A stretch of DNA of 64,000 bases from Patescibacteria group bacterium. GTDB lineage: Bacteria; Patescibacteriota; Microgenomatia; Levybacterales; UBA12049. Below are positions 58,741 through 64,000 of the stretch, piece after piece. Where the stretch lies: the NCBI GenBank assembly GCA_038064195.1, contig JBBTTO010000002.1, positions 466,387 to 530,386 of the forward strand, given 5' to 3'. Made by a program: the position numbers and the translations under genes. The first letter of the stretch is position 1. Each line of letters starts with the position of its first letter. The notes under the pieces are model-generated. The model was not told the DNA's origin and searched no databases. It was given only the letters and a program-made list of their open reading frames with translations.

Positions 58741-58833
58741 AATTCTATGACTTATTGCAGTGTAGGGTATGGCTATCGGCGCGTCAATATCATCATGCTT
58801 TTCGCATGCTTCTTTTTCTGCTATCATAGGCTC

Positions 58834-60345
58834 ATGACTGAAACTACTATGGAGAAGCTCCAGGCTCTTTTTAAGCGTCGGGGATTTGTTTATCCCGGGT
58901 CTGAATTATATGGGGGACTGGCAAATACCTATGATTACGGACCAGTCGGCACGGAGTTACTGCGTAATATCAAAAATCTGTGGTGGAAGTATTTTGTGCA
59001 GAAGCGGGATGATATGGTGGGGCTGGATGCCAGTATTATCTCACATCATAAGATCTGGGAGGCTTCAGGTCACACTGCCGGATTTACTGACGCGTTAGTC
59101 GACTGCAAAAATTGCAAAACCCGTATTCGTGCAGATCATTTACTTGAAGAGTGGATAGGCGTTAACAAACAGGTTGATACTGCGGGTAAATCGTCTCCCA
59201 CACTGACTCAGGAAAAAATAAATGCGGCATTTTATACAGAAAAAGTTGAGGGTTGGACTCCTCAAGAGATGGGTCAGTTCATCAAATCTTTCGCGGTTCC
59301 CTGTCCTGTCTGTGACGGTAATCCCGGGACAGAGTGGACTGATGTCCGTAAATTCAACCAGCTTTTCCCCGTCCAACTTGGTATTGTCGAGGGCGAGCAG
59401 GGACTTGCGTATCTCCGCGGTGAGACGGCTCAGGGTATGTTTGTCGATTTTGACAATGTCGTTAATTCAACTCGCGTGAGACTTCCATTTGGTATAGCCC
59501 AAGTTGGTAAGAGTTTTCGTAACGAAATAACTTTGGGTAATTCTGTTTTTCGTACTATCGAATTTGAACAGGGAGAGATAGAGTATTTCTTCGATCCGAA
59601 GAAAAGTAACTGGGAAGAGCTATTTGCGGCCTGGAAAAATTCCATGTGGAAATTTGTTACCAACGAATTAGGAGTGAAAGAAGAAAATTTGCGCTGGCGT
59701 GAGCATACTGATGAGGAACGATCCTTTTACAGTCAAAGGACAGAGGATCTGGAGTACAATTTCCCGTTTTCGTCCAAAGGACGATCGGCCTCTGGTCGAG
59801 GCTTTAAAGAACTTTGGGGCTTGGCGTATCGTACGGATTATGATTTGTCACAGCATGAGAAGCATGCCAACCGCGAATTAGTTATCAATGATCCAGAGAC
59901 CAATGAGAAGATCAAGCCGCATGTTATCGAGCCGGCTGTGGGTATCAATCGTCTTTTTCTGATGGTTCTTAGCGATGCATATACAGAAGATTCTTCGGGA
60001 GGCTCAGAACAAGCTCGAGTAGTCCTTAAATTACATCCCCGACTTGCTCCATACAAAGTAGCTGTTTTCCCATTACTGAAAAATAAACCTGAGTTGGTTG
60101 AAAAGGCACGGGAAGTTTATGGAATGTTAAAAAACGCAATAGACGGTATTGTCATCTGGGATGACAGGGGTAACATCGGTAAGCGGTATCTCGCACAGGA
60201 TGAGATCGGTACACCTTTCTGTGTCACTATCGATTTTGAGACTTTAGAGGACGGTGCAGTGACTGTCCGTGACCGCGACACCGCACAACAGGAGAGAGTT
60301 AAGATTGAGGAATTAAGTAATTATCTTAAGACCAAACTCAGCTAG
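58834..60345 (+). CDS. glyQS: Glycine--tRNA ligase, alpha2 dimeric type
   Basis: KRRGFVYPGSELYGGLANTYDYGPVG is the N-terminal class II motif region. C-terminal anticodon-binding domain. Start at the first in-frame ATG; the ORF-track start at 58747 overlaps the divergent gene. Confidence 0.85.
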   Translation: MTETTMEKLQALFKRRGFVYPGSELYGGLANTYDYGPVGTELLRNIKNLWWKYFVQKRDDMVGLDASIISHHKIWEASGHTAGFTDALVDCKNCKTRIRADHLLEEWIGVNKQVDTAGKSSPTLTQEKINAAFYTEKVEGWTPQEMGQFIKSFAVPCPVCDGNPGTEWTDVRKFNQLFPVQLGIVEGEQGLAYLRGETAQGMFVDFDNVVNSTRVRLPFGIAQVGKSFRNEITLGNSVFRTIEFEQGEIEYFFDPKKSNWEELFAAWKNSMWKFVTNELGVKEENLRWREHTDEERSFYSQRTEDLEYNFPFSSKGRSASGRGFKELWGLAYRTDYDLSQHEKHANRELVINDPETNEKIKPHVIEPAVGINRLFLMVLSDAYTEDSSGGSEQARVVLKLHPRLAPYKVAVFPLLKNKPELVEKAREVYGMLKNAIDGIVIWDDRGNIGKRYLAQDEIGTPFCVTIDFETLEDGAVTVRDRDTAQQERVKIEELSNYLKTKLS

Positions 60346-61915
60346 TGAGTCTTTCATAAATTACACCTTCATTTGAAATAGGATATAAGCCTGTAATACA
60401 TCCGCCACATTCTCCGTTGTGTAGAAATATCTCTCTGATATCAGCAGGTGTCAGTACTTCCCCTGATTCTTTACGTGCTTGGATAAAGTCTCGTGGCTTG
60501 ATATACGTTACACTATTTGCACCAATTGCTTCTGCTACTTTTACAGGGTCACCATTAAACATCGCTGCTATTAGCTCATCTTGTGTCCTCATGCTGACAC
60601 CTAAATGACACGTATGTTGGACGGGGGGGAATCCAACTGCCCAATGTACTTCTCTAGCACCTGCATTGAATACAGCTCGTGTCATGGCTTTTGCTACTTT
60701 TGAACGGACGATTGTATCATCTCCCAAAACAACAACTTTGTCTTGAAAAATATGGTCACCAGGGACCAAGGAAAGTTTTACGAGTACTTTCTTTTCAATG
60801 CTTTCCATATCGTCATCTCCCTGGAATAGTCTTCTATCAGCTGCTTGATCATAGTGATCCCGAATAATTACGGGACGGTATGGGATACCAGCGCCGATTG
60901 CAACGCCAGCGCTAAACGGAACGCCGGAGTCGGGCATACCAGTTACAAAATCGGCATCTTTAAAAATAGGATTGTACTGAGCTACTGTAATTCCCGCTCT
61001 TTCACGTGCTACATAATTTGATAACCATCTTTCAGGATGAATGCCATCATCTGGATTATCATAAGTAGGCGTTAGCGAATCAGGGCTACTAAAATACGGT
61101 ACCTCGAAGCTACAGTAGTTTCCAGCTCCGAGTTTACCTTCTCTAATAGTGGTTAAGCCGTTTTTGTTAATCCGAACAATTTCATTGCGTAGAACTTCTC
61201 GCTCAGGGTTTATACCTACTTTCTTAAAAGCTTTTGTTTCAGATGCAGCCATCCAACCATCTTTAATTCTTCCTAATACAAAGGGGCGTATTCCAAAAGA
61301 ATCTCTTGCTAGATAGAGACTATCTTCATATGCAATCATCATACTATATGCACCATTTGCACCGGTGTCTTCATCGAGAGATTTGAGGATCTTTTCTTCC
61401 ATACTATCTCCATCGAGTGCTGCTAAGTAATGTGCATATAGGTAGGTATCACTTGTATCTTCAGGGAATTCTTCTCCCGTTAATTCATGGATTTTTCTCC
61501 TCAGGTGTTCTGTAGCGGTGAATTGACCATTATGAATGACTGAAATAGGCGATTGAGTAAAGCGATCAGGAACGACCGCGGGTTGGAAGTTGGTACTATT
61601 ATATCCACCATTTGTACCATAGCGAGCGTGGACTTGATAAATTCCGTAAGGATTATCTTCTGTAAACGAACTTACCAATGAGTCTGTAAAAACCTCTCTC
61701 ATGAGTCCAGATCGAACGACTCGTCGATAGCCGTCATAGGTTGGATAATAAACCCCAGCTCCGAGTTGTCCTCTATGTTGAACACCAGTTGCGGCTTGAA
61801 GAGCTAATCTTACTGCGTGAGGAGTGTCAAGGCTTGGAAGGTAGAGTCCAACAATACCACATTCTTCTTGTAGGGGTTCATCTTCTTCTATAAAGCCGGA
61901 TTCTCTTTCTGCCAT
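60338..61915 (-). CDS. purF: Amidophosphoribosyltransferase-like class II (Ntn) glutamine amidotransferase with PRTase domain
   Basis: An 18-aa propeptide precedes CGIVGLY. QHRGQLGAGV. PRTase-type motif VVVLGDDTIVRSKV. 525 aa. Identity as bona fide PurF is uncertain. Confidence 0.6.
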   Translation of the reverse strand: MAERESGFIEEDEPLQEECGIVGLYLPSLDTPHAVRLALQAATGVQHRGQLGAGVYYPTYDGYRRVVRSGLMREVFTDSLVSSFTEDNPYGIYQVHARYGTNGGYNSTNFQPAVVPDRFTQSPISVIHNGQFTATEHLRRKIHELTGEEFPEDTSDTYLYAHYLAALDGDSMEEKILKSLDEDTGANGAYSMMIAYEDSLYLARDSFGIRPFVLGRIKDGWMAASETKAFKKVGINPEREVLRNEIVRINKNGLTTIREGKLGAGNYCSFEVPYFSSPDSLTPTYDNPDDGIHPERWLSNYVARERAGITVAQYNPIFKDADFVTGMPDSGVPFSAGVAIGAGIPYRPVIIRDHYDQAADRRLFQGDDDMESIEKKVLVKLSLVPGDHIFQDKVVVLGDDTIVRSKVAKAMTRAVFNAGAREVHWAVGFPPVQHTCHLGVSMRTQDELIAAMFNGDPVKVAEAIGANSVTYIKPRDFIQARKESGEVLTPADIREIFLHNGECGGCITGLYPISNEGVIYERLTS

Positions 61916-62017: not shown

Positions 62018-62518
62018 GTGAAGAATAAGCAGATCATTATCGCAGTCGCGGTAGTCGTAGTTTTACTCCTTATTGGTGGGATATTTATCGTGCTGAAGAA
62101 GTCTCCTGCAGCCAATAGCACGGCTGAGCAAATGGCTTCACTTGATGAGGACGTCATCAAGCTCTCTCCTTCAGACATCGGTTTGAAGATCAACACTCTC
62201 TCCAACAACCACCAGATCAAATTTACTCTTTCAAAGGCCGAAGGTATTACTCATATTGAGTACGAGCTCTCCTATGAGGCTGACTCAGCCGGTGGTTCAA
62301 GTGAGGATGGTGACGGCAGTGGTCGTATCACACGGGGTGTTGCGGGGGAGGATACTATCGATAGTCAGAGTATGTACATCTCCAAGGTGCTGGATCTGGG
62401 AAGCTGCAGTAGCGGTACCTGCCGCTATGACAAAGGTGTCACCGGTATTCACCTCCTCCTCAAAGTGACCAAAACAGATGATAAAGTCTATCAGGTTGAA
62501 GACACTCTCAACTTCTAG
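62018..62518 (+). CDS. Hypothetical N-terminally anchored, probably exported protein
   Basis: GTG start. Helix IIIAVAVVVVLLLIGGIFIVL, then a 140-aa Ser/Gly/Asp-rich hydrophilic domain. Confidence 0.5.
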   Translation: MKNKQIIIAVAVVVVLLLIGGIFIVLKKSPAANSTAEQMASLDEDVIKLSPSDIGLKINTLSNNHQIKFTLSKAEGITHIEYELSYEADSAGGSSEDGDGSGRITRGVAGEDTIDSQSMYISKVLDLGSCSSGTCRYDKGVTGIHLLLKVTKTDDKVYQVEDTLNF

Positions 62519-62605
62519 CCTCCACTAGTTCCATTTTCTTACATTTCTCTTACTACATGTTGTGTTAGTTCTTTCATTTCGGACACTATTTTTATGAAAA
62601 AACTG

Positions 62606-62632
62606 TTGACCCCGATTTGATCGGGGTTGACA
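62606..62632. promoter_or_regulatory. 27-bp near-palindrome TTGACCCCGAT-TTG-ATCGGGGTTGACA (possible operator and/or −35 of an upstream mraZ promoter)
   Basis: 8-bp perfect inverted core ACCCCGAT/ATCGGGGT, flanked by direct TTGAC copies. The right-hand TTGACA is 17 nt from CAAAAT at 62650..62655. Confidence 0.35.
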
Positions 62633-62660
62633 ACCATAATTAAATGGTGCAAAATGGATT

Positions 62661-62705
62661 AAAGTAGTGATAGATAGTGAAGAGTAGTGAAAATCGTGCT
62701 ACAAT
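62661..62705 (+). promoter_or_regulatory. Putative MraZ operator: three 10-bp-phased direct repeats (AAAGTAGTGA / TAGATAGTGA / AGAGTAGTGA) abutting a TACAAT −10 box at 62700..62705
   Basis: TAGTGA recurs at 62665, 62675 and 62685, an exact 10-bp period. TACAAT lies 9 nt downstream and the mraZ ATG 41 nt further on. Confidence 0.5.
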
Positions 62706-62746
62706 GTGGGCGCGATTGAGCGGGAAGACTTGATCGTTAACAATTC

Positions 62747-63184
62747 ATGCTTTTAGGACAGATTGAAGGCAAGCTAAGTAAGAAGCACCAGGTAGCACTT
62801 CCCAAAGAATTTAGGGTCGAGTTAGGAGAGACGGTTATTGTTACCAAGGGATTTAAGACGTATTTACAGATTGTAGCCAAGAAGAACTGGGAAGTATTGC
62901 TTGAAGGGACTAAGGGTAAGCCATTTACCGATCAGGGGACACGCGATTTACAGCGTTTTCTCTTCGGAAATGCGGTTGAAGTTCGGTTGGACACGCAAGG
63001 TCGCATGCTTATCCCTGATTTTTTACGTAGGCATGCCAAATTAGACAAAAAAGTTATTTTCGTTGGTATTGAACGTTACGTTGAACTCTGGGATGTAAAA
63101 GAATTTCAACAATACGATGCAACTGTCGCAAAAGCACCTGAATTGTTAACTATAAATTTGAGTAAGACACAAGGACATGAATAA
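62747..63184 (+). CDS. mraZ: Transcriptional regulator MraZ
   Basis: 145 aa, two tandem halves. N-terminus LLGQIEGKLSKKHQVALPKEFR is typical MraZ. Immediately followed by rsmH, as at the head of dcw clusters. Confidence 0.85.
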   Translation: MLLGQIEGKLSKKHQVALPKEFRVELGETVIVTKGFKTYLQIVAKKNWEVLLEGTKGKPFTDQGTRDLQRFLFGNAVEVRLDTQGRMLIPDFLRRHAKLDKKVIFVGIERYVELWDVKEFQQYDATVAKAPELLTINLSKTQGHE

Positions 63185-64000
63185 CTATCACATACCCGTT
63201 CTTTTACAAGAAGTACTTCAATATTTGGAGATTAAGCCTGGAGGTTCATATATTGACGCGACGTTAGGTGGCGGAGGCCATACCCTTGAGATCATAAAGA
63301 ATGGCGGAAGAGTCCTGGGAATTGACACCGATGATGACGCTATTAACTACGTAACTTCCAACCTCAAAGATCTAGGATCTAAGGTCCAAGATCTGGTTTT
63401 GGCAAAAGGTAATTTTACAGATATAGTATCCATTGCCAAAGAAAATGGTTTTGATCAGGTAGACGGGATCATGATGGATCTTGGTGTCTCGAGTCATCAA
63501 TTTGACACACCTGAGCGGGGGTTTAGTTTTCAGCCGGGACCGCTTGATATGCGCATGAGTCAGACAATATCGGTGACAGCAGCAGATTTGATTAACGGAT
63601 TAACTGAGAAAGAGTTAGTTGAGTTGTTTACCAGACTTGGTGAAGAGCCCTTTGCCAAAAAAATTGCCCGTCTGATTGTTGAGACCCGCAAGCATGAACC
63701 GATACGAACGACTGATCAACTTGCAGGCATGATTAAAGCATTACTTCACGGCACGGATGGAATCCATCCGGCAACACGTGTCTTTCAAGCACTGCGTATA
63801 GCAGTTAATGACGAATTAAATGTCTTGCGGGATAGTTTGCCGCAAGCAGTTGGACTGCTTAAACCCGGGGGGAGATTGCTGATCATCTCATTTCACTCAC
63901 TTGAGGACAGGATCGTTAAGCAAGCATTTACACAATTTGAAAATCAGGGTTTGGGAAAAATTCTCACCCAAAAACCGGTTACAGCCAGTGATACGGAAGT
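63177..64000 (+). CDS. rsmH: 16S rRNA (cytosine1402-N4)-methyltransferase RsmH/MraW, 5' part; runs off the window
   Basis: Translation MNNYHIPVLLQEVLQYLEIKPGGSYIDATLGGGGHT carries the RsmH SAM-binding GGGGH motif. Overlaps the mraZ stop by 8 nt. No stop codon before the window end. Confidence 0.85.
   Translation, partial: MNNYHIPVLLQEVLQYLEIKPGGSYIDATLGGGGHTLEIIKNGGRVLGIDTDDDAINYVTSNLKDLGSKVQDLVLAKGNFTDIVSIAKENGFDQVDGIMMDLGVSSHQFDTPERGFSFQPGPLDMRMSQTISVTAADLINGLTEKELVELFTRLGEEPFAKKIARLIVETRKHEPIRTTDQLAGMIKALLHGTDGIHPATRVFQALRIAVNDELNVLRDSLPQAVGLLKPGGRLLIISFHSLEDRIVKQAFTQFENQGLGKILTQKPVTASDTE

Follow-up and report, generated by a model that had tools for sequence, protein, structure and literature searches.

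Three 10-bp-phased boxes of sequence (G/A)TAGTGA, at positions 62664-62690 of the 64-kb stretch of DNA that we analysed (the window), form a candidate MraZ autoregulatory operator, in which a core re-coded to GTAG would be matched by a glutamine at residue 15 (Gln15) of the MraZ encoded downstream. We put the probability of this reading, with repression as the regulatory effect, at roughly 75%. It retains the proposal of the initial annotation that the repeats are an MraZ autoregulatory operator, which is strengthened by the invariance of the boxes and by their covariation with MraZ residues. The accompanying argument from a GTG core is abandoned, and the promoter assignment turned out to be incomplete. 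The element would be a known kind of operator with a re-coded core/residue pair and a TGA extension that goes with Gln84, in an architecture that otherwise matches. Binding, the choice between repression and activation, and the transcription starts are what we infer from the sequence.

The repeat array, mraZ and its neighbourhood

Read directly, positions 62660-62705 run T-AAAGTAGTGA-TAGATAGTGA-AGAGTAGTGA-AAATCGTGC-TACAAT. Three TAGTGA hexamers lie on the forward strand at 62665-62670, 62675-62680 and 62685-62690, with an exact 10-bp period, and TACAAT follows at 62700-62705, separated by 41 nt (62706-62746) from the ATG at 62747, all as initially annotated. The hexamer is present three times as claimed, but the full unit is one base longer and reads (G/A)TAGTGA. 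Box 1 (GTAGTGA, 62664-62670, preceded by AAA) comprises the core GTAG and the clade-specific extension TGA and is invariant in relatives; box 2 (ATAGTGA, 62674-62680) has A at position 1, where most relatives have G; box 3 (62684-62690) is again GTAGTGA, all three on the forward strand. Known MraZ operators consist of at least three direct repeats with a period of 10 bp, or one helical turn, and have the core GTG(G/T), or TGGGN in E. coli. The window has three such repeats, starting at 62664, 62674 and 62684, and they are placed as in known operators, 9-35 nt after the -10 element of a TTGACA-17-CAAAAT promoter and 57 nt before the mraZ ATG, whereas the register equivalent to GTG reads GTAG or ATAG. 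The pattern TAGTGA-N4-TAGTGA-N4-TAGTGA, with up to two mismatches allowed, occurs once on the two strands of the window, and the phased triple was recovered in 0 of 100 dinucleotide-preserving shuffles. Since the lone TAGTGA hexamer is not enriched in the window (28 observed, 27.5 expected), the signal is the phased arrangement.

The open reading frame downstream of the repeats (62747-63184, forward strand, 145 aa) had been called mraZ, and profile searches confirm it: PF02381 matches with E = 7.8e-27 in two stretches, corresponding to half-domains, and TIGR00242 scores 103.5 bits (cutoff 98.35). MraZ chains in the PDB match with E about 1e-20 (2e-20 over residues 1-126). The protein has the two tandem MraZ (SpoVT/AbrB-like) half-domains and the length of about 145 aa typical of the family. 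Its HMMER alignment with M. genitalium MraZ (PDB 9qlr) is gapless over residues 1-126, so that residue numbering carries over directly. The first of the two DNA-reading loops is S-K-K-H-Q, with Ser11, Lys13 and Gln15, and the second has Asp82, Gln84 and Arg86. Of the two DXXXR motifs of known MraZ (Asp11...Arg15 and Asp82...Arg86), the first is therefore missing, and the second is intact, as is Lys13. When we aligned 122 MraZ sequences (the 120 homologs listed, the window protein and that of M. genitalium), residue 15 was Gln in 105 and Arg in 17; Lys13 was present in 121 of 122, and Asp82 and Arg86 were essentially invariant. Of the nearest 150 cluster representatives, at 50% identity and drawn from 1.84 billion proteins, Arg15 is present in 137 and Gln15 in 8. 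Arg15 is the norm among these representatives, and Gln15 thus marks a particular group of Patescibacteria.

The closest MraZ homologs are metagenomic. Those with names belong to 'Patescibacteria group bacterium' and Candidatus Saccharimonadales, more distant ones to Levybacteria, and one fragment from Hainich groundwater (L012) is 99% identical. Downstream of mraZ and overlapping its end by 8 nt lies the 5' part of rsmH (mraW; 63177-64000, forward strand; PF01795 at 3.6e-90, TIGR00006 at 289.8 bits), which runs off the window. In relatives the gene order is glyS or a GATase-like gene, a membrane ORF of 160-170 aa, mraZ, rsmH, a 93-aa ftsL-like ORF and an ftsI-type PBP gene, an arrangement that represents the head of a dcw cluster. 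Upstream of mraZ, the window has an ORF of 166 aa (62018-62518) with a hydrophobic segment near the N-terminus; its counterparts in the related loci examined are syntenic and 159-168 aa long. It has no match in Pfam or NCBIfam and is a conserved neighbour of the dcw cluster in this lineage. Further upstream, in the ORF pair 58747-60345 and 60338-61915, the glycyl-tRNA synthetase ORF shares 8 nt with the end of a convergent ORF of 525 aa that encodes a glutamine amidotransferase domain. Its listed start adds an implausible extension of 34 residues, and the true start is probably the internal MEKLQ.

Box sequence and the DNA-contacting residues of MraZ

Conservation of the repeat upstream of mraZ orthologs had been named beforehand as a check, and it was borne out. 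We aligned the intergenic regions of relatives whose MraZ are 90, 78, 76, 71, 66, 59 and 56% identical; over MraZ identities of 56-92%, the boxes are invariant and the spacers variable. The boxes of these relatives read GTAGTGA (box 2 sometimes ATAGTGA), with 3-nt spacers that differ. Also kept are TTGACA and, 17 nt later, a CAAAAT-type -10 element, and in the closest clade TGnTAnnAT together with a leader element described below. We extended the comparison to 80 further loci from metagenomes and to loci retrieved by exact protein look-up. A strict search detected the phased triple in 74 of 80 distinct loci, and the other 6 have arrays that are recognizable by eye.

The initial annotation had also matched the GTG within TAGTGA to the published core. 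This match fails, as that GTG lies 3 nt out of register, at bases 4-6 of the 7-nt unit, and is found in the window's clade only. Box 1 starts about 37 nt (35-39) from TTGAC in GTAG and GTGG arrays alike, and their flanks are otherwise the same (AAAGTAGTC-AAAGTAGGA versus AAAGTGGTC-AAAGTGGGA). Equal distance and like flanks identify GTAG as the counterpart of GTGG, and by this comparison the unit homologous to GTG(G/T) is GTAG, which departs from the published consensus at position 3. Recognition could instead centre on GTG(A) within TAGTGA, a mild variant of GTG(G/T), with the preceding (G)TA as mere flank. The GTG would then equal the published core, no base of TAGTGA varies among the three boxes of the window, and box 2 departs from GTAG at position 1, where it has A. 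However, the sister Gln15 clades have boxes GTAGTC or GTAGGA, with no GTG at all, a GTGA core would lengthen the promoter-to-box spacing to 40 nt, and the TGA extension tracks a different residue, Gln84. We consider a GTG(A) core very unlikely and read the boxes as GTAG.

The first MraZ protein-DNA structure dates from 2026. In the cryo-EM complex of M. genitalium MraZ with DNA, every subunit occupies one major groove with its cradle motif. Box position 2 (T) is contacted by Lys13, position 3 (G) by Arg15 and position 4 by Arg86; both arginines are positioned by aspartates, Asp11 and Asp82, with which they form the two DXXXR motifs, and binding is lost in each of the mutants K13A, R15A and R86A (PMC12957436). 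We compared these contacts with the boxes of the collected loci. The best 10-bp-phased triple was (A)AAGTAG at every Gln15 locus and AAAGTGG at every Arg15 locus. With a pattern that is blind to position 3 (AAGTNG x3), Gln15 loci returned 180 boxes with A and 6 with G, and Arg15 loci 44 with G and 1 with A; all 7 discordant boxes came from arrays slipped one period upstream onto a box-like -10 element. In the strict arrays of 74 distinct loci, position 3 is A,A,A in 61 of 61 Gln15 loci and G,G,G in 13 of 13 Arg15 loci (P = 9.6e-15, Fisher test, uncorrected for phylogeny); shared ancestry inflates these locus counts, since only a few evolutionary events underlie the covariation. In the 6 loci that lack a strict array the same pairing is recognizable by eye, and L093 (Asp11, Arg15), which has GTGG boxes, agrees with it. 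Positions 2 and 4, with their readers Lys13 and Arg86, are constant across loci.

As outgroup we used the one distant relative returned by a single-protein scan of genome contigs, an Omnitrophica locus (L001) with canonical GTGG boxes. For residue 15, the point estimate from the neighbour-joining tree is 2 changes, and bootstrap replicates range from 1 to 6, on a tree that is poorly resolved for a protein of 145 aa. Given this scatter, we do not claim multiple independent Arg/Gln switches. The protein nearest to the window's clade, P0115, combines Arg15 with Gln84 and would be the intermediate with most to tell. One further locus, L092 (P0028; Gln13, Gln15, Gln84), has the boxes ATAGTGA, TTAGTGA and GTAGTGA at 940-970, which also fit the pairing of Gln15 with A at position 3, and encodes the sole homolog seen with a change from Lys13 to Gln. 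Its degenerate position 1 would be consistent with Lys13 reading positions 1-2, although this is a single anecdote.

The residue that changed contacts, in the solved complex, the very base that changed, which is a strong sign that MraZ reads the repeats. The match between residue 15 and position 3 is the strongest available evidence for this short of experiment. Glutamine and adenine pair in a common recognition pattern, and we infer that Gln15 reads the position-3 adenine directly and is the causal change. R15A abolishes binding in the model MraZs, and a Gln15 MraZ might alternatively bind via its second half-site only, with the A at position 3 kept for some other reason.

A second covariation concerns the 3' end of the boxes. 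TGA follows at least one box in 16 of 16 Gln84 loci, and all three boxes in 13 of these 16, as compared with 0 of 54 Lys84 loci. Residue 84 is the pseudo-symmetric counterpart of Lys13 (D82-x-X84-x-R86 versus D11-x-K13-x-R15), and L073, from another part of the tree, seems to have combined Gln84 with TGA independently. On these counts the TGA extension tracks Gln84, with the Omnitrophica MraZ, which has Arg15 and Gln84 without TGA, as a counter-case.

Promoters, leader and flanking motifs

The family-wide mraZ promoter (P1) has its -35 hexamer, TTGACA, at 62627-62632 and its -10 element, TG followed by CAAAAT, at 62648-62655 (CAAAAT at 62650-62655), both on the forward strand; the promoter scan gave 10 of 12 matches with a 17-nt spacer. 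All our promoter calls are consensus matches only, and TTGACA-17-CAAAAT is the sole sigma-70-like match that the scan found in the region, shuffles of which average 1.0 match. Nearly all loci of the Gln15 and Arg15 types have TTGAC upstream of box 1, at a distance of 35-39 nt (mode 37), and a C/T-A-N-A-A-T element lies 7-9 nt before box 1 throughout the family. With a start about 7 nt past the -10 element, transcription from P1 is predicted to begin at around 62662-62663, at the edge of box 1. This resembles the arrangement of M. genitalium, where the transcription start lies inside box 1 and MraZ represses (PMC12957436). A degenerate 'box 0', ATGG at 62654-62657, is in phase with the array and overlaps the -10 element, and the relative with 90% identity (L002) has ATAG there.

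TACAAT had been annotated as a box abutting the repeats. It does adjoin the array, and TGCTACAAT (62697-62705, forward strand), to which it belongs, looks like a conserved extended -10 element, but it is confined to a subclade, and the family-wide promoter lies upstream of the boxes. TACAAT is probably part of a second, clade-specific promoter (P2), of which the boxes would cover about -48 to -22. Of the 16 loci in the window's (Gln84) clade, 12-13 have TGnTAnnnT 7-9 nt after the core of box 3, as against 0 of 60 other loci; the leader is about 57 nt long in the window's clade and short in the other 60 loci. Variation of the P2 element is confined to weakly constrained positions of the hexamer, as one would expect if it were a genuine extended -10.

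Bound at about -48 to -22 of this promoter, MraZ could act as an activator. In the window's clade the boxes do adjoin the conserved TGnTAnnnT, and MraZ of M. gallisepticum is, according to a report cited in PMC12957436, an activator on overexpression. However, in 60 of 60 loci outside the subclade there is no downstream -10 element, and boxes that lie between a -10 and the start codon have the geometry of a repressor site. MraZ of E. coli is also said to repress. The same outcome was found in B. subtilis and in M. genitalium (PMC12957436). We therefore regard repression as the likeliest outcome, and activation at P2 as possible but unlikely.

In the large GEKHQ clade, only 2-15 nt separate the end of box 3 from the ATG, which leaves no room for another promoter. 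In L022, L026, L027, L036, L040 and similar loci of this clade, box 3 is GTAGGA, 8-10 nt ahead of the ATG, and is the sole purine-rich stretch; it may double as a ribosome-binding site.

The leader of the window ends in a 15-mer directly before the ATG, GATCGTTAACAATTC (62732-62746, forward strand), which is invariant in relatives: it is identical where MraZ identity is 59-90%, a stronger conservation than that of the coding sequence. L010 and L017-20 have it in a reduced form, C(G/A)TTAACA. No Shine-Dalgarno sequence was found near the mraZ start, with the SD-like GGGAAG located 20 nt upstream. We rejected a leader RNA hairpin, ACGAT...ATCGT, whose consensus energy is -0.13 kcal/mol and which shows practically no covariation, and more generally a leader RNA element, as the 99-nt leader folds no better than its shuffles (z = -0.33). 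An Rfam search of the whole window found no family, and no intrinsic terminator scored within 62400-62900. Adjoining the -35 hexamer is a perfect 7-bp hairpin, CCCCGAT-TTG-ATCGGGG, at 62610-62626; as a terminator it was rejected, since it has no T tract and is absent from the 90%-identical L002. L003 has the hairpin with a different loop.

Two further motifs lie upstream of P1. The first consists of TCTTAC direct repeats 11 bp apart (62537-62542 and 62548-62553), followed by (C)ACTACAT-N3-TGT(A/G), with ACTACATGTTGTGT at 62552-62565. It is located about 65-90 nt upstream of the -35 hexamer and is kept in most Gln15-type loci, and related forms (CTACAT..TGTGT, TAGTGTT) occur in Arg15-type loci. 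Since it does not track residue 15 of MraZ, it is probably a site for another factor. The second, ACACTA(G/C/T), often GACAC(AC)TA, stands at 62581-62589 (GGACACTAT). Almost all loci, whether of the Gln15 or the Arg15 type, carry it 10-45 nt upstream of the -35 hexamer. In Streptomyces, GACAC has been published as the motif of WhiA, which raises the possibility of a second cell-division regulator acting on the mraZ promoter; the link to WhiA is weak, as many loci have ACACACTA without GACAC. Upstream CACTA, the reverse complement of TAGTG, was rejected as an inverted MraZ box because it is present also in Arg15-type loci with GTGG boxes.

With such motifs conserved in the region and not tracking MraZ, other regulators probably act here, and the repeats too might bind another factor, or be a promoter or leader element that no protein reads, with MraZ uninvolved. 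We give this reading very little credence, since the box sequence switches with a DNA-contacting residue of MraZ in every locus examined, since position, number and 10-bp period fit experimentally defined MraZ sites, and since the RNA searches described above returned neither structure nor family. MraZ itself is very likely the reader of the boxes.

Comparison with known MraZ operators and meaning

As in the M. genitalium complex, adjacent subunits of an MraZ oligomer would each place one cradle motif in a major groove, with one box per helical turn. The array would start at about +1 of TTGACA-17-CAAAAT and, in the subclade, would also extend over -48 to -22 of the TGCTACAAT promoter. As the operator lies between two -10 elements, bound MraZ would block both promoters; by blocking RNA polymerase, it would repress mraZ-rsmH-ftsL-ftsI. 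The change from G to A at position 3 would be matched by that from Arg15 to Gln15, whose partner Asp11 is also lost, and the extra TGA after each core would go with Gln84 in the window's clade.

M. genitalium has four AAAGTGT-N3 boxes (PMC12957436), and in the Mollicutes M. genitalium and M. gallisepticum together, AAAGTG(T/G)-N3 occurs in three or four copies (9qlr, 9qlg, 9sx6, PMC12957436). The window shares with them the 10-bp direct repeats, the A-rich 5' flank (box 1 reads AAAGTAG), the location in the mraZ promoter and a start at or in box 1, which in the window is predicted. The proteins are likewise similar: the 145-aa MraZ of the window aligns with that of M. genitalium without gaps, and Lys13, Asp82 and Arg86 are conserved. 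The differences are an A in place of G at position 3 of the core, Ser and Gln in place of Asp11 and Arg15, three boxes rather than four, and the 3-nt TGA extension of the clade; the window system is, moreover, known from sequence.

In B. subtilis, repression depends on three GTGG[A/T]G-N4 repeats in Pmra and is lost in R15A or R86A mutants of MraZ. The number and phasing of the boxes are the same as in the window, and the B. subtilis array, which overlaps the core promoter, occurs only at the mra promoter of its genome, a parallel to the uniqueness of the triple within the 64-kb window. B. subtilis differs in having GTGG where the window has GTAG, and in needing both Arg15 and Arg86, whereas the window MraZ has no Arg15. 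In E. coli, work by Eraso et al. in 2014 reportedly described an operator between Pmra and mraZ, made up of three TGGGN repeats spaced by 5 nt, and autorepression of the dcw cluster. This operator too consists of three 10-bp direct repeats downstream of the promoter and upstream of mraZ; its core sequence is different, and its own protein has both DXXXR motifs. The nearest comparison is offered by the Arg15-type loci of Patescibacteria themselves (Levybacteria-type P0110, L070-L091). They have TTGACA-17-CAAAAT, then 7-9 nt, then three boxes with A-rich flanks and often the same 3' flanks (TC, GA), but they keep Arg15 and their boxes are AAAGTGG, exactly one base per box away from the Gln15 loci.

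The literature that we searched held no report on MraZ in Patescibacteria, Saccharibacteria or the CPR, or on GTAG boxes, although reports may exist elsewhere. We see an even chance that a large lineage of Patescibacteria, including Saccharimonadales-type genomes, has re-coded its MraZ-operator pair such that the change from Arg15 to Gln would be sufficient for that from G to A at position 3, that residue 84 (Lys or Gln) would set the 3' bases (TC/GA versus TGA), and that the two would form a simple, transplantable residue-to-base code for the MraZ/AbrB-type cradle. Ready-made swap pairs for probing how this fold reads sequence would be R15Q with G3A, and K84Q with TGA.

MraZ is among the most widely conserved bacterial transcription factors and heads the cluster of cell-division and cell-wall genes. 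The loci analysed here represent a natural lineage without one of its binding arginines, Arg15, whose operator is altered at exactly the base that this arginine contacts, and hence a natural example of a regulator and its target re-coded together. The covariation also lends independent support to the structural contact map. Over a large part of the Candidate Phyla Radiation, MraZ sites will escape searches with a GTG(G/T) motif. In these uncultivated, genome-reduced and ultrasmall bacteria, few cis-regulatory elements can be assigned with some confidence, and the array upstream of mraZ is one of them.
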